Under the pieces are notes generated by a model. The model was given only the letters and a program-made list of their open reading frames with translations. It was not told the DNA's origin and searched no databases. DNA of 40,641 nucleotides from an uncultured bacterium (lineage in GTDB: Bacteria > CSSED10-310 > CAZUFC01): assembly GCA_964619725.1 (NCBI GenBank), contig CAZUFC010000077.1, positions 1-40,641 of the forward strand, in the 5' to 3' direction. How positions within the stretch are numbered: position 1 is the stretch's first letter; each line of letters opens with the position of its first letter. Of this stretch, positions 17,228-40,641 are shown one piece after another. Position numbers and translations under genes: made by a program.

Positions 17228-17402
17228 AGTTTCACCGCCTTAAGTCAGTCAGGCTTTAACGGAAACAATCAACAGCAAGCCGTCCACTGCCTGATCGGAA
17301 GACAGTGAACATATTCAGAAATTGACCTTTGCTCATTAGATTGATTCTCCAGCAAGATAATAGCGTAAGGAAAAACAAATGTAAAAACACTGAAAATTAA
17401 GA

Positions 17403-17901
17403 AACTGATCAAACCGGATTAAAGTTTTTACAGGGAAAAAATTGACTGATTGAAATCCCCATTCCTGAAAGGAACAGATACGCTTATGTCGATGCGAGAC
17501 GCTCGCAACGAAGCATGGGCATTAGCGTATCGGGGGTTGTTTTTTTTCTTACGGAACATCAAATGCTTATGGAATTTATGATATCTCCCGGCCTTTTGCA
17601 GATTGCGTACTGCCCGAATTGTAACCTCGAAAGACCTATTTTCAGACTTCGTTAAGGCAAAATTTAAAGTCATTTAAATTAAATTAGTTGAGCAGCATCT
17701 CTAAAATTGGACAATTGAGCAAAAACAAACATTTCAAAACTATTTAAATTCAATATGATAGTCAATGCCAGTGAATCGCCCGATCATCTCTTTTTGGTCT
17801 AACTATATGATTTTAATAACTTTAACAAAATGACCCATTGTCCAAAAAATCCACTGTTTTTTCACCCCTTTTTAACGATCTCTGATTTTGGATCAATGCC
17901 C
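17403..17901 (+). repeat. Family A-ended composite element containing a structured core and a nested MITE
   Basis: Left end ACTGATCAAACCGGA; right end AATTGTAACCTCGAAAGACCTATTTT|GGATCAATGCCC split by the insertion at 17643-17884. Confidence 0.6.
17643..17884. mobile_element. 242-bp MITE, family D, nested in a family A end
   Basis: TIRs CAGACTTCGTTAA / TTAACGATCTCTG (11/13); 5-bp duplication ATTTT at 17638-17642 and 17885-17889; solo matching end at 14174-14186. Confidence 0.8.
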
Positions 17902-17942
17902 GCTTTTTTAAGAACGTTAAGCTGTATTGAGGGTTTGACTTC

Positions 17943-17979
17943 ACCCCCCGGCCCCCTCTCCATCACTGGATAGGGGGAG
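17943..17979. repeat. GC-rich REP-like hairpin
   Basis: CCCCCTCTCCA-TCAC-TGGATAGGGGG stem-loop preceded by a C-run. Confidence 0.45.
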
Positions 17980-18049
17980 TAAGATTGGGTAATTAAAGCG
18001 GTTAGGTCGAAAAGAAATAATACCGCAGCATCTTTCCATCATTGGCTTT

Positions 18050-18280
18050 CGCATTGGGATAACGGGAACAGATCATTGTATTTAAAGCTAAGAAAGTTAA
18101 AAATGTATTCGTTGTCGTGATCGTTGTCGAATTTAAACATTACGCCCATTCAGGCGAAATTGAATTTAAAAGTCATTGCGCAAGGCGCTGCGACAACGAT
18201 AACCGCTTCACCGGCAAATGACACGACAACTATTCATCAGCCGAATGTGAAAGTAATGAAGTAAATTTAATCCTCATATG
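18050..18280 (+). repeat. Family B dispersed repeat, copy 2
   Basis: Shares TTTAAAGC..AAAAATGTATTCG, CATTCAGGCGAAATTGAATTTAAAAGTCATTGCGCA and ATTCATCAGCC blocks with the other copies. Confidence 0.85.
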
Positions 18281-18672
18281 TATTGCATCATTGGAGAAGG
18301 GCAGCGGGCTTGGTAATGATGCACAGGAATTTGACTTTTTCATCGACATTGCATACTTATAAGAATGAGGACTCAAACCGAAATGCTGATCGAAACGGCG
18401 CGCAGGTTTGAACTGTTTACTGATCCTGTCGACCGAGGGATCATTAACCATGAACGAGGGTGTTTTCGTTACGGGTGGAGACGAAGCATCGCGCTGCCGG
18501 TAGATTGTTTTTTTTCGTACACGGTCAATTCTGATTTATTGACGCTTTAAGAAGCGTATATCGGGAGGATGGCGCGCATCAAAGATTGGTGCATGCGGAT
18601 GCTTTTGATGTCGACCCTGATTATCGGTTTTCCGATTATGAGGGAATATCCTCCGGAGGAAAGGAGAGCTTC

Positions 18673-20562
18673 ATGAAAAGGGCGGTTACGGCGATGAATG
18701 TGATGGCGGCGATAATGTGTTTTTTCGCAGGAGCGGCATTAGCGACGCCGGGTATGATCAATTATCAGGGAAAAGTTGAGGTGGGCGGCGAGCCTTTCGG
18801 GCATCCTGATGCAGCGACGGGATATTTTCGTTTTGCGATTGTGAACGACGATCAGGTAATCGTATGGAATAACGACGGTACGCAGCCTGCAGCTCCCGGG
18901 ACGAACGTTCCGATCACGGTATCGAATGGATTGTATAATGTGCTCCTGGGCGATACGTCCCTGCCGGGCATGACGGAATCCATTCCATATTCCATTTTTT
19001 CGATGGATGTATTAAAGTTACGGATATGGTTCGACGACGGTCAGCATGGAGTGCAGGTATTGACTCCTGACCAGAGGATAACGAGTGCGGGGTATGCTTT
19101 CAATGCCCAGATGTTGAACGGTATGGACTCGGACGATTTCATGCAGGCCGGTGTGGATGAATGGGTGAACGAAACCGGCGATACGATGACGGGAACGCTG
19201 AATTTACCGGCAGACGGACTGGTTGTTGGGGGCGATCAACTGATAGCGGTGAACGGCAAGATAGGGATTGGAACGACTGACCCCGGCGCCAGGTTGAATA
19301 TAGAATGTTCCGGGCATGCCTTACTGGCTACGACAAACTACATTCCGGTAAGGGGCGTCAAGACCGGTTCCGGGACATTTCCGGGAGTGCAGGGCGAAAC
19401 CGAATCCGAGTCGAGCGGCGCTTCCGGCGTACGAGGACGAGTCACAAGCGAGACGCCGGGGGCCAATTCAGCGGGAGTATACGGCGTAAATGCCGGTACC
19501 GGCTCTGACGGCATAGGTGTGCGGGGTCGCCATTCAGGCAGCGGCATAGGCGTTATGGGCGAGGTAGTGGATTCTGCCGGATATGCGGGTTATTTTGCCG
19601 GCGGCAAAAATTATTTTGAAGGAGCCGTGGGCATTGGAAAAGAGTCTCCAGTAAAAATGCTTGAAGTCAAGGGTAATGATGGAATCCGCGTTACTTCTTC
19701 CTCAAGCGACAGCTTCTACGGAGACATATATCCTGATTTTGGTTCAGGAGCTGGAGGACTGGTGATAAATTCCCGTACGGGCGGCACCTGGGCCGACATC
19801 AGTTTTCAGTGTAACGGAAATACCAGGATGTTTTTGACTAGCAGCGGTCGGCTCGGCATAGGCACGACGGCGCCGGGCGCGGGATTGCATGTTGTGGGCG
19901 CTGATTTTCCGGAGTCTTTTATTTATCTGCAAGCTGATGAGTTTCATGATGCAGGCATACGGTTTTATTCAGGAGCCAATCCGATGTGGCATATTTTCAA
20001 TGACGGGGACGCCTGGCAGAATTTGCGTATAGCGCCTCAAAACGCCTTCGGCAGCGGCGGTATCACGGTCAATTTAGTCGGCTGGGTGGGAATAGGAACC
20101 ACATCGCCGTCTGAACAGCTCGAAGTCGCCGGAGCGATAAAACTTTCCGGATCAGACCTGGCTGAACCGTTTGCATTCGCAGAAACGGATGAGCTCGAAC
20201 CCGGAATGGTGGTCGTAATTGACAGGGAGAATCCTGGTGAATTGAAGATATCGGACAGGGCTTACGATCGATGCGTGGCTGGCGTGATTAGCGGCGCAGG
20301 CGGCATCAAGCCCGGAGTGCTTATGAGCGACGAACGCCTGGGCGGTTCGCATAACGTGGCGCTTGCCGGCCGGGTTTATACCTGGTGCGATGCTTCTTTC
20401 GGTTCGATAGAGCCGGGGGATATGTTGGTGACCTCGCCCGTCTGCGGGTATGCGATGAGAGCAGATGAGACGGAAGCCATACACGGTGCAGTGATCGGAA
20501 AGGCGATGGAGGGTCTTAAAGACGGCAGGGGACTGGTTTTGATTCTCATTTCACAATTATAA
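18673..20562 (+). CDS. Secreted fibre/tail-spike-like protein with GIGT repeats and C-terminal autochaperone-like (peptidase G2/IMC-like) domain
   Basis: ATG 18673 with RBS AAGGAG; signal peptide ending ALA; PGMINYQG N-domain; repeated (I/V/L)GIGT..P; C-terminal GSDLAEPF...PGMVVVID...AYD..VAGVIS...VALAGRV...GDMLVTS...IGKAM. Confidence 0.75.
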   Translation: MKRAVTAMNVMAAIMCFFAGAALATPGMINYQGKVEVGGEPFGHPDAATGYFRFAIVNDDQVIVWNNDGTQPAAPGTNVPITVSNGLYNVLLGDTSLPGMTESIPYSIFSMDVLKLRIWFDDGQHGVQVLTPDQRITSAGYAFNAQMLNGMDSDDFMQAGVDEWVNETGDTMTGTLNLPADGLVVGGDQLIAVNGKIGIGTTDPGARLNIECSGHALLATTNYIPVRGVKTGSGTFPGVQGETESESSGASGVRGRVTSETPGANSAGVYGVNAGTGSDGIGVRGRHSGSGIGVMGEVVDSAGYAGYFAGGKNYFEGAVGIGKESPVKMLEVKGNDGIRVTSSSSDSFYGDIYPDFGSGAGGLVINSRTGGTWADISFQCNGNTRMFLTSSGRLGIGTTAPGAGLHVVGADFPESFIYLQADEFHDAGIRFYSGANPMWHIFNDGDAWQNLRIAPQNAFGSGGITVNLVGWVGIGTTSPSEQLEVAGAIKLSGSDLAEPFAFAETDELEPGMVVVIDRENPGELKISDRAYDRCVAGVISGAGGIKPGVLMSDERLGGSHNVALAGRVYTWCDASFGSIEPGDMLVTSPVCGYAMRADETEAIHGAVIGKAMEGLKDGRGLVLILISQL

Positions 20563-20737
20563 GATGATGTTTCGTGATGAAGGGTATGAGAATGAGAAAA
20601 AAACAAATATTCGCAGATGAGGAGGGTTTTCTCATGAGTTTTTCAGCCCTTTATTCAACGGAGCAATATACCGGAATGTAATTTTCAGCGCTGAGACGCC
20701 TCAGTAGCTGGAAGATTTTGATGAAAGGAAAAGAATT

Positions 20738-22453
20738 ATGAGAAAGGAACCAGTTCAGCGGAAGAACAGGGAAAGGATTCGGGAGAACCTGTCGGGTACC
20801 GGTTCTGCAGACGCCCGGACAAATTTTGTTTACCTTTCAGTATTTTTTCTGATTTTAGGAACGGCTGCAACGGTTTTGTTATTTTTTATACCCTCGACAT
20901 CGGCCGGCGTTGTTGAGGCGGAGAATGTACCGGTCGTTGTAGAAACGTGGGTCAGGGAGCTTACGGCGGATGCTCGCTCCGATGCCTTTGTAAAATCATT
21001 GGAGCCTTACCGGGAAGGCGGAGAGATCACGGGTTACGTTGCTGTATTGGAGAACGGCGGATTCTGCATTGCATCCGCCGACGATATGCTTCTTCCCGTA
21101 TATCTTTACAGCCCGGAAGGCGAGTATCATCCGGAGGACCCTGCGGTTCGACACATTTTTTGGGAGATGAAAGAGCGGCGGCAAAATATGCGTCGCATCC
21201 TGAGTGAAGGGGAAGAGGAAGAAGTCTCCTGGATGGCGAAGGAACTGGAGTCCAGACAAGGATACTGGGAAGCTTTGAAGGCCGGCGAGATACCCGATGG
21301 ATGGGGGCGTTTCGGAGAATCAAAAGCCGAGCCGAATGTAATGGAATTAGATTTGTCCTGCAAATGGCACCAGGGTTCACCATATAACGATCAATGCGTT
21401 GAGTTGACGCCGGGTGCGGACGAGCATGTGGTGGTCGGCTGCAATGCGACGGCGACATTGCAGATCATGTATTACTGGCAATGGCCGAATGCGGGTACGG
21501 GCTCCGGCAGCGTCACGTATGACTGGCGATACAGAACCAATTGGGATTATGAAGCGTTGGCTTCAGACCCGGGCATACCGGCCGACTGGGGCGCTGTGCC
21601 CGGATACGAATACGGAAGGCTGACCTGGACATCGGGCGGCGGCGGTTATCTGCGCATGACAGGTTACTGGGATGCCAGCGTGCTCAACGCAGCCAAAAAC
21701 GACAACAATATCACAAACAAAACGCCTGAATACCTGGCTGCATTACAGGCGCTCTATGACCGTCTAACGCCCGGTTCCACGAACTGTTACGCTAACTTCG
21801 GCGCTGCGGCTTACGACTGGAGCATAATCAACGATACGCATTCCGATCCGCCGGATGCCGGGGACGTCGAAGTCGCAAAATTAAACAATCACGTTGCAAT
21901 AGGCGTCAATTCCACTTTCGGCGTCTGGGGAACATCATCCTATTTCGGTAACGACGTCGCCGGGCTTGAAGATCATTTCGGATACGATTATGACGCTCTA
22001 TTTACACAGGTTGCGGACATTTATTCAATCACAACAGACATATTGTGGCTGAGACCGACGGGATTAGGCGGCAGCAGTGAAGGCGGCGGCGGTCACGCCT
22101 GGGTCGTCCACGGATACAATAAATCTACCGACCCTCACCGACAGTTCCTCATGAACTTCGGCTGGGGAGGCAGCTCAGACGGCTGGTACACCTTCGACAA
22201 CGCTCCTTTCCCCCTCAATCACGACATGATGACCCGCATCGCTCCGCCAACAGTTAAATTCGTCGATAATTCAGGCGCCGGAGACGGCTCGCCGAATAAC
22301 CCCTACGGAAGCGCTGCCGAAGCCGTCGCTGAAGCCCCCAATCACTCAACGCTCATCTTTAAAGCCGGATCAGCATTTCCATACTCCGGCGATTCCCTGA
22401 CTTTTAATAAACCTCTTCTCCTGAGAGGGTACCAGGCGGTGATCGGGAATTAG
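20738..22453 (+). CDS. C10 (streptopain/SpeB-like) cysteine peptidase with prodomain and C-terminal ~65-aa module
   Basis: WHQGSPYN, catalytic VGCNATA..QIMYYWQWP, GHAWVVHGY, MNFGWGG; prodomain GGFCIASADD..LPV. Confidence 0.9.
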   Translation: MRKEPVQRKNRERIRENLSGTGSADARTNFVYLSVFFLILGTAATVLLFFIPSTSAGVVEAENVPVVVETWVRELTADARSDAFVKSLEPYREGGEITGYVAVLENGGFCIASADDMLLPVYLYSPEGEYHPEDPAVRHIFWEMKERRQNMRRILSEGEEEEVSWMAKELESRQGYWEALKAGEIPDGWGRFGESKAEPNVMELDLSCKWHQGSPYNDQCVELTPGADEHVVVGCNATATLQIMYYWQWPNAGTGSGSVTYDWRYRTNWDYEALASDPGIPADWGAVPGYEYGRLTWTSGGGGYLRMTGYWDASVLNAAKNDNNITNKTPEYLAALQALYDRLTPGSTNCYANFGAAAYDWSIINDTHSDPPDAGDVEVAKLNNHVAIGVNSTFGVWGTSSYFGNDVAGLEDHFGYDYDALFTQVADIYSITTDILWLRPTGLGGSSEGGGGHAWVVHGYNKSTDPHRQFLMNFGWGGSSDGWYTFDNAPFPLNHDMMTRIAPPTVKFVDNSGAGDGSPNNPYGSAAEAVAEAPNHSTLIFKAGSAFPYSGDSLTFNKPLLLRGYQAVIGN

Positions 22454-37410: not shown

Positions 37411-38943
37411 TTACTGTCCGATAACGACGACTCCATTTCTGGCGTTGACTGTCATTGGTTTTTCAATAACGAGCTGTTCGTCGTAGGAGCCTGCTTCGAC
37501 ATAGAGGTCGCTTCCGCTGATGACGGCGAAGACTCCTTTATGCACGGAGTTGAAGGGATTGGATAAGGTACCCAGTTCTTCTCCGGAGAAAGAGCCGTCG
37601 ACGTAAATGGGGTCAGTTGGTTGCAGGTAGGGCTGCAGTTTGGGCCAAACGACGTCGAACCTGCCGTAAACGGCGTCATTGCCTGTTTCGCAGTCCCAGT
37701 TAGCGCCTTGAAGCGAACCTCTGACGCGACCTTCCGAGTCGAAAACAGGAGAGCCTGAAGAACCCGGTTCCAGTTCTCCGTTGCCGTGCGGATTGTATAC
37801 GATGTATCCGATGGGCCACCAGTCCAGATCGCCGGTTTTCGTTCCGAAAGTTATTCTTTTGTATGTCCCTGCCGGGTGATGGATGCCTGTTGAAGCAGAA
37901 TCGTTGCTCCAATATCCGGCATCCCAACCCTGGTAATAGACGCCGCCGGGGATATCCGACCTCAAACCCACTAGAGAGGTATCTGTTGGGTTTTCGTGCA
38001 CCATACGAATAGCTCCTGCGGTTTGCGGGAGCGTCGCGGGGTCCGGGGGGGCTCCGTCGCATGTGGAGGACTGGAAGAACCAGGTGACGAGCAGGCTTTT
38101 TACGTTATGTTCTTCGATGCCGCAATGCCAGTTCGTCAACAGATAGGGCGTCCAGTCCGTAGGATTACGGTTCAACAAGCAACCCGTGCAGAAATATCCG
38201 TACGGATTGTTGATGTAGGATAACGCGCCGACTCCTGAAGCTGCAACAGCCCAAGCAGGATAACAGGTAACGTCCAGGTGGCAGGGGAGTTCCTTGCTTC
38301 CGGAATTGGGAAAGGGTAATCCCCTGTATTGATTCAGCAGGGCGTCGATGGTGATGTGGTTTTCAACCTGTCCAGGGTCCAGATCATCAGGAAGGTAATA
38401 TTCCAATTTTACCTCATTTGTATATAAAGTGGGGGTCCAGAAAGGAGCTCCTGATATTTTAAGTGAGTCGCCGAAAGGGCCGAAGGATTGATCTGGATTA
38501 AGAGCATCGTAAACAATCAATTCGCTTCCCGACGGCGGGTTCCAGGGCTTTATTCTAAGTCGAATTCCCACGGCTCCGGGAGCGATGAAAGCATAAGTCC
38601 ACAAATGTCCTTCTTTTCCCAATTGCGTCCATTTTCCGTCTTTCCCGGACCGGGGCTCGAATTCCTGAACTACTCCCATACGCAAGGGACCGAGTTTTTT
38701 TTGTTCCGCATCCTCCCGCAACAGTTCGTCGACGTCCAGATAAGATGTGACAACGATATTATCTTCCTGGAAGAGCTCAGACAGGTTCAGCGTTCGGGGC
38801 GTTTTGCGAGGGATGCCGATTGCGTCTTTTTTCGCTTCTGCCGCATCGGCGAAAGGCGCTCTCTCTTCGGCGTGAATGACGTCAGCGCTCGTACAGCAGA
38901 AGCAGTAAAATAGTAAGCTTAGCAATATGAACAGACACTTCAC
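37411..38943 (-). CDS. Secreted S1 serine protease, lysyl-endopeptidase-like, with propeptide and C-terminal ~65-aa module
   Basis: GTG 38943 with RBS AAGGAGG, 10 nt after the upstream stop; CTGCLLN, LTNWHC, DTSLV, GIHHP.G..KRI, EPGSSGSP. Confidence 0.88.
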   Translation of the reverse strand: MKCLFILLSLLFYCFCCTSADVIHAEERAPFADAAEAKKDAIGIPRKTPRTLNLSELFQEDNIVVTSYLDVDELLREDAEQKKLGPLRMGVVQEFEPRSGKDGKWTQLGKEGHLWTYAFIAPGAVGIRLRIKPWNPPSGSELIVYDALNPDQSFGPFGDSLKISGAPFWTPTLYTNEVKLEYYLPDDLDPGQVENHITIDALLNQYRGLPFPNSGSKELPCHLDVTCYPAWAVAASGVGALSYINNPYGYFCTGCLLNRNPTDWTPYLLTNWHCGIEEHNVKSLLVTWFFQSSTCDGAPPDPATLPQTAGAIRMVHENPTDTSLVGLRSDIPGGVYYQGWDAGYWSNDSASTGIHHPAGTYKRITFGTKTGDLDWWPIGYIVYNPHGNGELEPGSSGSPVFDSEGRVRGSLQGANWDCETGNDAVYGRFDVVWPKLQPYLQPTDPIYVDGSFSGEELGTLSNPFNSVHKGVFAVISGSDLYVEAGSYDEQLVIEKPMTVNARNGVVVIGQ

Positions 38944-38953
38944 GAGTTCCTCC

Positions 38954-40641
38954 TTACTGCAGCGATATGAATACCAGGGCGAGTCCCTGTCCGGAGTCAA
39001 TCCCGGACATGGCTTTTCCGATTACCGCTCCTTGAGATTTGTCGAAGTCGTTCGCTTTCATGGCATAACCTGTGGTAGGCGATGTCGTCAGAAAATCGCC
39101 GGCTTCGATGGAGCCGTAAGTCGCATCGACCAGGCAATAGACCCGGCCTGTGATGGCGATTTGCGTATCGCCTTCCAGTTTGTTTCTCTGCTGCAATGAT
39201 AATCCCGTCTTGACGCCGCCGGCCCCGCTGACCACTCCTATGACTTTTCTGTCATACGCCTTATCGCATCTCTTGAGGCGTCCCGGATGCTCCGTATCAA
39301 TGACCATGATGCTGCCGGGTTCGACCTTTTCGCCTTCAACAGCGTAAAAAGGTTCCGCTATATCGCTTCCTCCGTTTATCTGAAGGACTTCAACTTCTGT
39401 AACGTCGTTGCTTTTGACTCGAAACACGGGATGCCAGCCGCCCTGATAACTGTCGCAACGGAAAATATCGCCCTCTCCCAGATTGGAGGCAAGAAAAGTA
39501 ACGTCGTCCGAATCGTTTTTGCAATGCATTGCGATACCGTTGTTCGTATTAGTGTTTTCAACGTAACAGGCAGTTCCCGATGCTCCGGAGCCTGAACCGT
39601 AAATGCTTAAACTATGCGCTCCGGGATTCGTCGTTCCAATGCCGATATTGCCTGAGCCGTCCTTTATTACCGCACGGGTTCCCGCTTTGCTGTTGTAGTC
39701 GTACAGATACAGGTAATTGTTTGTTGTTGAATAAGATAACGACCATCTGGCGCTCCCGCTTTCCTCCAGTCTGATGGAGGGGCTTCCGGACAACGCGTTG
39801 ATAGCCAGTGAGGGGCTGGAGTCTGCCAGATGAAGAAGAGCGACAGGTGTGCTGGTTCCGATGCCTATCTTTCCATAAATATCAAAAGACATTTTGTCGG
39901 ACCATGAAGCTCCTTCGTCGATACTGCTGGAGAGATGCAGCTCTCCGCCGCTGTTCTGAAGCCTCCAGTCAAGATACGACGCTCCTGTTCGTTCCAGGAT
40001 AAGAGCGGCATCATCGGAAGAAGAAGAGGTAATTTTAAATGCCTGATCTCCTGAGCCGTATATTTCCAGTTTACCGTCAGGATTGGATGTTCCTATACCG
40101 ACTTTGTCCGAACTCGACGTAAGCCTTATGATAGACCCGTCATCCGTCCAGCCGCCCGAAGGTCCTTCCGGACCAGACGGGCCTCGAGAACCTGGCGGAC
40201 CGCTCGGACCTCTCGCTCCAGACGATCCTTCCGGTCCCGTCGGTCCACTCGGTCCTCTGGCGCCGGCTGAACCCTCCGGCCCCGTCGGACCCATGGGACC
40301 TGTGGCTCCCGTCAATCCGGCGGGATCGCCTACCCATTGACCAGCATCATCTATAACTTCTCCGTAATTTACTATACTGACGCTGTTGGGATGAATATCC
40401 TGCTTGTAGACATCATCGGCGTTCAACGCATAAGCCGCGCTCGTCAGCGGAAGGCGCGGCGACAATATTTCACCGTCAACAGCGATTTGCAGCCAGTATG
40501 TGCCGGTGAATCCCAGGTTTATATCATTTGTCGATCCTAAAACAACGTGAAAAAGGCCCTCATTCACTGAAATTCCTGTATGGAACTGTGTCTTTCCGGC
40601 AAGCGTGCTTAACAATCCCTGCCCGCCGTGGCTATCATTGG
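38954..40641 (-). CDS. Fibre/tail-spike-like protein with collagen-like segment, GIGT repeats and C-terminal autochaperone-like domain (5' end outside window)
   Basis: Frame open to the window edge; [26 protein letters not shown] repeats, GGSDIAEPF...[11 protein letters not shown]...GRV...GDFLTTS...IGKAM; paralog of 18673-20562. Confidence 0.8.
40157..40318 (-). repeat. Collagen-like Gly-X-Y repeat (18 triplets)
   Basis: [24 protein letters not shown] ... GPE GPS. Confidence 0.9.

Follow-up and report, generated by a model that had tools for sequence, protein, structure and literature searches.

When a gene for a surface fibre is directly followed by a gene for a secreted protease, and the arrangement recurs with a protease of another class, do the two products belong to one system? 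The question is raised by a stretch of 40,641 nucleotides (nt) from an uncultured bacterium of the GTDB lineage CSSED10-310 (GenBank assembly GCA_964619725.1, contig CAZUFC010000077.1), which is called the window below. It contains two co-oriented pairs of a fibre gene followed by a secreted protease gene, with a C10 cysteine peptidase at locus 1 and an S1-like serine peptidase at locus 2. Both pairs had been pointed out in the original prediction, made from the sequence of the window, and both are indeed present. Analysis of the same genome, of other genomes and of metagenomes indicates that this two-gene cassette is almost certainly real and conserved; its partners, the modules that they share and the ways in which the cassette could work are described here.

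Two fibre-protease pairs in the window

At locus 1, fibre 1 (18673-20562, plus strand; 629 amino acids (aa), delineated from the open reading frame (ORF) and its translation) comprises a signal peptide, an N-terminal domain resembling that of the Bdellovibrio MAT family, a body of GIGT repeats and a C-terminal domain (C-domain) of the autochaperone type known from gp12 of phage phi29. The ATG at 18673 is preceded by GGAGGAAAGGAG, and the N-terminus is the signal peptide MKRAVTAMNVMAAIMCFFAGAALA; the Sec signal expected at this locus was thus found, and the window is as free of phage genes as had been proposed. An intergenic gap of 176 nt separates fibre 1 from protease 1 (20738-22453, plus strand; 571 aa), a secreted peptidase with an N-terminal membrane or signal segment that matches Peptidase_C10 (PF01640) with 113.1 bits against a cut-off of 26 (E 2.6e-32). 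Its prosegment shows a weak Inhibitor_I69-like match (PF13734, E 0.0014), and GCNATA (Cys234) and GHAWV (His452) are taken here to be the C10 cysteine and histidine motifs.

At locus 2, fibre 2 (38954-40639, minus strand), the 5' end of which is cut off by the window edge, includes the N-domain segment, a collagen segment (PF01391), GIGT repeats and the C-domain, which begins at the D of GGSDIAEPF (38957-39364, minus strand; local profile E 2.4e-55). It is followed by protease 2 (37411-38943, minus strand), a secreted S1-like peptidase that carries the motifs WHC and GSSGSP and scores 26.1 bits with Trypsin_2, just short of the cut-off of 27.6. Translation of protease 2 likely starts not from the TTG at 39000 but from the GTG at 38943, behind AAGGAGG and 10 nt past the TAA of fibre 2. 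Two other cassette partners (L188 and L232) exceed the PF00089 cut-off of 20.6 with 25.1 and 27.1 bits; their kinship with protease 2 is known for the C-terminal module only.

The two fibres are 35% identical over 331 residues (E 3e-43), the C-terminal ~140 aa being the best conserved, which agrees with the earlier description of a common N-terminal segment, GIGT repeats and a common C-terminal domain. The proteases are alike only in their last ~70-88 residues (pairwise E 0.004) and had rightly been assigned to unrelated classes. Neither has a match among the PHROG families.

The pairing follows the fibre C-domain

A local profile of the MAT-like N-domain detects 84 ORFs in this 9.17-Mb genome, nine of which also have a C-domain of the window type. 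All 221 ORFs neighbouring the 84 fibre genes were scanned with Pfam. The next co-oriented gene encodes a peptidase or amidase for five of the nine C-domain fibres versus one of the 75 other fibres (Fisher p = 2e-5); the pairing therefore tracks the C-domain and not the N-domain. The sole peptidase directly downstream of one of the 75 is an M14 enzyme at a gap of 825 nt, and the remaining peptidases near these fibres are encoded upstream or on the opposite strand. Of the N- and C-terminal segments by which the fibres had originally been defined, then, the second is tied to the pairing and the first is not (1/75). Besides the C10 and S1-like enzymes of the window, the partners of the nine C-domain fibres are a Peptidase_C39_2 protein (392 aa, gap 16), two CHAP proteins (178 and 187 aa, gaps -12 and 3), a 512-aa protein on contig C172 that has no Pfam match and ends in the module T2 described below, an 865-aa protein with a weak thermolysin-propeptide motif only (E 0.0099) and a TPR protein; one fibre has no close downstream gene. 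Only three of 40 other genomes scanned, 13 of which belong to the same phylum, have the C-domain: in two the downstream gene is not a recognisable peptidase, and in the third the locus ends at the contig edge.

A pattern scan with the C-domain across one genome per species yielded 279 loci confirmed by tblastn, of which the best 80 were kept. In nearly all of these the fibre ORF terminates in VLV(S/T)LQ, and 75 have a downstream ORF, mostly co-oriented and starting within ~100 nt of the fibre stop. At a Pfam threshold of E <= 1e-3, a peptidase family was recognised in 35 of the 75 downstream versus two of 60 upstream ORFs, both S8 (Fisher p = 3.5e-9). The downstream ORFs span at least 10 peptidase families, led by C10 (16/75), with four astacins, four reprolysin-like proteins (two of them weak), three M43, three C25 and one each of M4, M6, M10, C39-like and trypsin. 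The others comprise six proteins with a sorting domain of the type IX secretion system (T9SS) alone, three BNR/sortilin-like and two Kelch proteins, one each of phosphoesterase, DMFA2_C-like and dockerin proteins, a sigma factor after a gap of 607 nt, five ORFs on the opposite strand and about 20 without a Pfam match. The enrichment was replicated in metagenome contigs, where 436 loci were confirmed and 80 kept: a peptidase is encoded by 29 of 45 complete co-oriented downstream ORFs, or 26 of 41 distinct sequences, and S8 and a pro-kumamolisin (S53) domain join the list. That the pairing would be enriched beyond this genome, as the original prediction implied, is borne out by both sets. Across all cassettes the peptidases are of classes C10, C25, C39-like, CHAP, S1, S8, S53, M4, M6, M10, astacin, reprolysin and M43, and the partners that are not proteases include Kelch, BNR/sortilin-like and phosphoesterase proteins; the proposed interchangeable cargo is thus as diverse in peptidase class as had been suggested but is not confined to proteases. 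By a crude test, an N-terminal hydrophobic segment is present in 54 of 67 downstream versus 17 of 46 upstream proteins.

As labelled in their records, the kept loci come from Gemmatimonadota, Bacteroidota, Chloroflexota, Acidobacteriota, Verrucomicrobiota, Planctomycetota, Krumholzibacteriota, Zixibacteria, Proteobacteria, Cyanobacteria and a few archaeal metagenome-assembled genomes. Among the carriers are cultured, harmless species: Runella zeae, Larkinella punicea, Spirosoma spitsbergense, Lewinella cohaerens, Fibrisoma montanum and Sulfidibacter corallicola. The archaeal labels are Thermoplasmatales, Euryarchaeota and Promethearchaeota (L121, L123, L190; P0010), and these cassettes could reflect transfer or binning error.

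No conserved upstream gene was found: the upstream ORFs form small unrelated groups. Genes for extracytoplasmic function (ECF) sigma factors are divergently oriented upstream in four of 60 loci (L148, L163, L172 and L173), and weak matches to zf-HC2 (anti-sigma-like) proteins are seen upstream of astacin cassettes (L135, L138, L165); these neighbours hint at control by envelope signals.

Two C-terminal modules of the partner proteins

The similarity of the two window proteases at their C-termini defines a module, T1. An iterated profile seeded with both proteases (alignment A4) supports it in each of them, with E 4.8e-21 for protease 1 (residues 485-571, 22190-22450, plus strand, where it ends the protein) and E 1.1e-25 for protease 2 (residues 444-529, 37414-37671, minus strand). 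T1 is ~88 aa long and follows the pattern YVD..G..G(S/T)...P(Y/F)......AP.G..L....G.Y......(K/R)P(M/L)TLRA..G.V.IG. It is present in 37 of the 75 downstream ORFs, within one residue of the C-terminus in 23, followed by nothing but a T9SS sorting domain in six Bacteroidota partners, and followed by 243 more residues in four astacins. A second module, T2, of ~105 aa with the end pattern ..GIK..G..KL.NGG.IKLY, is found in 13 of the 75, always at the C-terminus, and also ends the 512-aa C172 partner. Either T1 or T2 is carried by 50 of the 75 downstream proteins, and at some further loci the module resides on the second downstream gene. The carriers of T1 are C10, astacin, M4, M10, M43, C39-like, trypsin, Kelch, BNR and DMFA2_C-like proteins, and those of T2 are C10, C25 and M6 enzymes.

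Structure prediction gave a T1 model with a predicted local distance difference test score (pLDDT) of 73; its fold matches are weak (best E 0.17) and all concern the N-terminal portions of proteins with a right-handed beta-helix. T1 is related to the cap found at the N-terminus of right-handed beta-helix domains, with matches to DUF1565 and some 89 ORFs of beta-helix type in this genome, but in the cassette partners it stands alone at the C-terminus, unlike the caps. The T1 and T2 profiles have no match in the region of the fibre ahead of its cleavage site. The idea that the modules are T9SS sorting domains was rejected: the six Bacteroidota partners have T1 plus a separate Por_Secre_tail, and no Por_Secre_tail-type family matches the window proteases.

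Genomes of the Spirosomaceae type share a conserved partner of ~590 aa with T1 and a T9SS sorting domain (L147, L154, L158, L160, L175 and L193); as its first ~380 residues have no Pfam match, it may represent an unrecognised enzyme family. Downstream of fibres of the C-domain clade that lacks modules (see below), two small secreted CHAP proteins (L087:4477-5013 and L107:195-758, both on the minus strand) share a cysteine-rich tail, NPCGCGDCDC.DCCVED, and the C39-like partner (L084:6996-8174) has a cysteine-rich end too. Another group of small secreted proteins beside C-domain fibres (L093:700-1227, plus strand; L110:940-1443, minus strand) shares a glycine-rich motif ending in ...GGFW; its members come from this genome and a relative of the same phylum, and in one of them a Thr/Pro-rich linker is combined with a C-terminal membrane segment.

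The modules occur beside fibre genes and differ with the C-domain

Within this genome, only the two window proteases have C-terminal T1, and C-terminal T2 is confined to the C172 partner and a 493-aa protein, so that all four such proteins are encoded beside a fibre gene. The 493-aa protein (L061:5498-6979, plus strand, at 26438-27919 of contig C71) follows a 182-aa ORF with the fibre N-domain only and may stem from a cassette that was broken or rearranged. In another genome, complete and 5.0 Mb in size, a T1 match lies ~1-2 kb downstream of each of the five C-domain loci, and all five T1 matches of E 2e-10 or better, together with two weaker ones, fall at C-domain loci; a genome of 11.8 Mb has one C-domain, and its best T1 match adjoins it. 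The other T1 matches in these two genomes are partial and lie inside large beta-helix proteins. A C-terminal module common to the proteases had been anticipated in the original prediction: it exists, in two types instead of one, and in the genomes checked its C-terminal form is not distributed independently of fibre genes but found only beside them.

A tree of 89 fibre C-domains, labelled by the module of the partner, places all 14 T2 cases in one clade of 20 (support of 95 in the Shimodaira-Hasegawa-like approximate likelihood ratio test, SH-aLRT) and 37 of 39 T1 cases in its sister clade of 55. The labels require 17 changes on the tree, a value reached in none of 200 shuffles, for which the mean is 35.8.

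The fibre C-domain resembles the phi29 gp12 autochaperone

The last 200 residues of fibre 1 were modelled with AlphaFold2 from a 39-row alignment (mean pLDDT 78.7; about 74-97 by blocks over the C-domain). By VIA-align, the C-domain model (residues 66-198) superimposes on residues 692-854 of phi29 gp12 (3gqh_A) with Z 13.9 and a root mean square deviation of 2.1 A over 110 residues at 23% identity, and on uncleaved gp12 (3suc) with Z 13.7. Foldseek alone is marginal (3suc, E 1.1e-3), and phage capsid decoration proteins, which have the same beta-tulip fold, rank lower than gp12. Residue 66 of the model, aligned with gp12 residue 692, is D524 of the motif G-S-D-L-A-E (20149-20166, plus strand; numbered from the TTG at 18586), a putative autocleavage site at which the cut is expected before D524. 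In the corresponding motif, G-x-D-x-A-E-x-F, 96% of 89 C-domains retain D and 97% retain E; S617, G621, K639 and A640 are invariant in all of them. We take residues 692 and 695 of gp12 to be catalytic; release of the gp12 C-terminal fragment needs ATP. Because of the fold and the motif, the C-domain of fibre 1 (20155-20559, plus strand) is classified as a gp12-type autochaperone (MEROPS G2-like, beta-tulip), as the original prediction had suggested; that the ~135 residues at the fibre end adopt this fold is very probable on the strength of the model.

The likeness to gp12 extends to the position of the domain, which forms trimers and lies C-terminally in a fibre or spike, and to the conserved D-x-x-E at the aligned cleavage position. 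The window proteins differ in being cellular and Sec-exported, outside any phage, and gp12 lacks a partner enzyme gene bearing a matching tail module. Homology of the C-terminal region of gp12 to some bacterial adhesins has been noted before, according to the accessible part of a preprint (bioRxiv 10.1101/216911).

The C-domain family is large, with 28,840 cluster representatives at E <= 1e-3 and 22,574 at E <= 1e-10. Its closest relatives are called "hypothetical protein" where the source names them, and almost none contains a Pfam domain; one family member, P0220, passes the cut-off of Peptidase_G2 (PF11962) with 37.1 bits. The C-domain is terminal in 221 of 257 relatives. The other 36 are giant proteins of up to 5,766 aa, P0124, P0138, P0145 and P0152 among them, in which it is not terminal; in these giant relatives the C-domain fold is repeated internally, in two or three tandem copies, after which comes a tail of 125-460 aa without a Pfam match.

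Fibre body, N-domain and the MAT family

The segment shared by the N-termini of both window fibres reads GL(Y/F)xVxLG...TSAxYA, and the GIGT repeats are likewise common to the two. The mid region of fibre 1 matches tail-fibre families of PHROG. Its conserved beta-rich N-domain (18715-19155, plus strand, bounds approximate), defined by the local profile, weakly matches NF053851 (Bdello_MAT_N), with 35.6 bits under a cut-off of 60 (E 7.5e-9) and with the match confined to profile positions 104-159, corresponding to fibre 1 residues 134-187. Apart from the C-domain of the window type, the C-termini of N-domain fibres in this genome are S74 in eight of 64 scanned, FGE-sulfatase-like in four, beta-helix in one and P_proprotein in one. 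The 84 N-domain genes are scattered among unrelated housekeeping genes (e.g. L031-L107).

In Bdellovibrio bacteriovorus, the available portion of the report on the MAT family (PMC10769870) lists 21 members that share an N-domain of ~130 aa after the signal peptide, 13 of them with S74. As far as that portion goes, the fibres of both organisms have a signal peptide, a conserved beta-rich N-domain of ~130 aa and a fibre body; both also form large paralogous families with swappable C-terminal ends that include self-cleaving chaperones, the 84 N-domain ORFs counted here being about four times the 21 of B. bacteriovorus. There are differences as well: the N-domain match of the window fibre is weak and under the curated score, neither a G2-type end nor a linked enzyme gene is described in the part of the report available, and the present host belongs to another, sparsely sampled phylum.

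A possible mechanism and its alternatives

The first gene of the cassette would encode a Sec-exported, probably trimeric surface fibre with a variable body (collagen, GIGT repeats) and a MAT-like N-terminal anchor. Its C-terminal ~135 residues may assist trimer folding and then self-cleave between S and D of G-S-D-x-A-E. The second gene, usually 10-30 nt downstream, would supply a secreted hydrolase with a freely exchanged catalytic domain and T1 or T2 at its end. This module might dock on the C-terminal beta-tulip knob of the fibre or on the tip exposed by cleavage; the beta-tulip C-domain is the best candidate for the docking site and might remain attached outside the cell after the cut. Beta-tulip domains are described as trimeric protein-protein interaction modules in the part of bioRxiv 10.1101/216911 that is accessible. 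A cell-anchored fibre would thus carry the enzyme at its end, in the manner of cohesin and dockerin, where the enzyme could digest the proteins or cells that the fibre touches.

As a whole, tethering of a module-bearing enzyme by the fibre end is the explanation that we favour, with confidence evenly divided between its being right and wrong. That T1 or T2 is the element which ties the enzyme to the fibre is suggested more tentatively, at slightly under even confidence. The still broader notion of the self-cleaving beta-tulip end as a universal docking hub, into which T1 and T2 plug proteases and other hydrolases and which arms the cell surface across phyla, is somewhat less likely than not. 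The original idea of a cellular fibre scaffold with exchangeable protease cargo gains from the enrichment of the pairing and the linkage of the modules to fibres, display itself being inferred.

Several results weigh against tethering. Neither module is present in 25 of the 75 downstream ORFs, and the tree contains a third C-domain clade of 14 without a module, including five fibres of this genome, three of which are followed by CHAP, CHAP and C39-like genes. The agreement of module type with C-domain clade could, at least in part, also be expected from vertical inheritance of whole cassettes. T1 need not be a special docking fold, since it is homologous to ordinary beta-helix N-caps, and if the C-domain is cleaved and released, it offers no docking site on the mature fibre. 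Even the assignment of the C-domain meets with faint sequence scores: PF11962 matches two of the nine C-domains of this genome below its cut-off (E 0.01-0.016; fibre 2 has 15.1 bits against 25, E 0.016) and does not match fibre 1, and a search of the sequences in PDB with the C-domain profile returned nothing meaningful (best E 0.35). The sample is biased as well, in that the kept loci are the nearest relatives by two peptide patterns, so that kin are not independent and near-duplicates occur (e.g. L156/L162 and L130/L138/L165), and the ORFs were called by a simple longest-frame rule, which is crude.

Fibre and enzyme may instead form a co-regulated cassette without contact, the fibre being an adhesin to substrate or prey, the enzyme free or held at the cell in another way, and T1 and T2 tags for sorting, anchoring or folding that are recognised by some component apart from the fibre. 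Tight linkage of genes does not by itself show binding, and one third of the downstream genes have neither module; in one Bacteroidota family the enzyme has a surface route of its own, because T1 is followed by the T9SS sorting domain, and the divergent ECF sigma factors at four of 60 loci suggest joint regulation. It is harder to understand in these terms why C-terminal T1 and T2 are seen only beside fibre genes in the genomes checked and why the type of module tracks the clade of the C-domain, and a shared sorting machine is difficult to picture for modules that occur in at least 12 phyla with differing envelopes. We regard a cassette of this kind as unlikely, though to be taken seriously. 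As another alternative, the downstream peptidase could be a maturation enzyme that trims the C-domain or a propeptide of the fibre, for which any endopeptidase might serve, so that the class would vary; most partners are endopeptidases, and the fibre carries a processing site. But the conserved D-x-A-E self-cleavage motif makes such a helper unneeded, the same modules are attached to proteins that are not proteases (Kelch, BNR/sortilin-like and DMFA2_C-like), a phosphoesterase partner without a module exists, and some loci have two module-bearing enzymes in tandem, all of which leaves this role for the peptidase very unlikely.

An origin of the pairs as remnants of prophage tail-fibre and lysin genes would be in line with the matches of fibre mid-regions to phage tail-fibre families, with a C-domain fold best known from a phage spike and with the two CHAP amidases among the partners in this genome. 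We nevertheless consider it highly improbable: within the limits of the pattern scan, 2.9 million viral contigs gave no C-domain relative as against 279 in genomes, no phage gene occurs in the window, fibres and enzymes have export signals, and the proteases lack a PHROG match. A polymorphic toxin system was considered as well and rejected, because the enzyme is encoded by an ORF of its own and has an N-terminal export segment, and the fibre itself ends in the C-domain, as in most of its relatives.

Relation to known display systems

The tethering that we favour would have its nearest counterpart in the cohesin-dockerin pairs of the cellulosome, where secreted enzymes, interchangeable and equipped with a common short docking module at one end, are likewise combined with a scaffold, docking being inferred in the present case. 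Here, the would-be scaffold is the end of a trimeric fibre and the cargo consists mostly of proteases; none of the four window proteins matches a cohesin or dockerin family. Phage tail fibres and tailspikes with enzymes, such as depolymerase spikes and branched assemblies, also place an enzymatic function at a fibre end, and T1 weakly resembles, in fold, the N-terminal portions of tail fibres and spikes of the beta-helix type. In phage spikes the enzyme is usually within the spike chain or docked through N-terminal adaptor domains, whereas the enzyme of the cassette is exported as a protein in its own right, with the module at its C-terminus, and it belongs to cells and not to virions. Secreted SpeB-type C10 peptidases of environmental or commensal bacteria are also encoded at the Bfp loci of Bacteroides, where, in the accessible part of PMC2873492, the partner gene encodes a staphostatin-like inhibitor and not a fibre.

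Literature searches, with most subscription journals outside their coverage, returned no account of a fibre paired with module-bearing proteases, in keeping with the original prediction, to which no description of the pairing was known. The cassette and the modules T1 and T2 thus appear to be undescribed, and the fibre itself belongs to known kinds. A consistent partner gene and two modules give the C-domain family a testable role, and they provide an annotation rule for thousands of secreted proteases, including partners without a recognisable catalytic family. If docking of the enzymes on the fibres does take place, proteases would be displayed some way off the cell by a new principle, with a stalked protease version of the cellulosome that could be used to prey on other cells, to scavenge proteins or to remodel the matrix. 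This would be relevant to bacterial predation, to the turnover of protein in soil and sediment, and to engineered enzyme display.

Additional observations

Small proteins with a dockerin domain are encoded after a few related fibres (L125:5521-6009, L235:1617-2189 and L236:3995-4567), and in this genome a protein with a cohesin domain (L073:7360-10653) is encoded upstream of the fibre on C106. The other genes of the window encode a histidine kinase, an RND efflux pump, an S41 peptidase, an SNF2 helicase, a transglutaminase-like protein and a radical SAM enzyme; phage genes were not seen among its annotated genes. Promoter and terminator scans were uninformative, with site counts not above those in shuffled sequence, and under this limit no terminator-like site was recorded on the coding strand between fibre and protease. 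The ~1.4 kb 5' of fibre 1 (17228-18672) have no ORF of 100 aa or more on either strand, and their G+C content of 0.42 is lower than the 0.50-0.52 of the fibre and protease genes.

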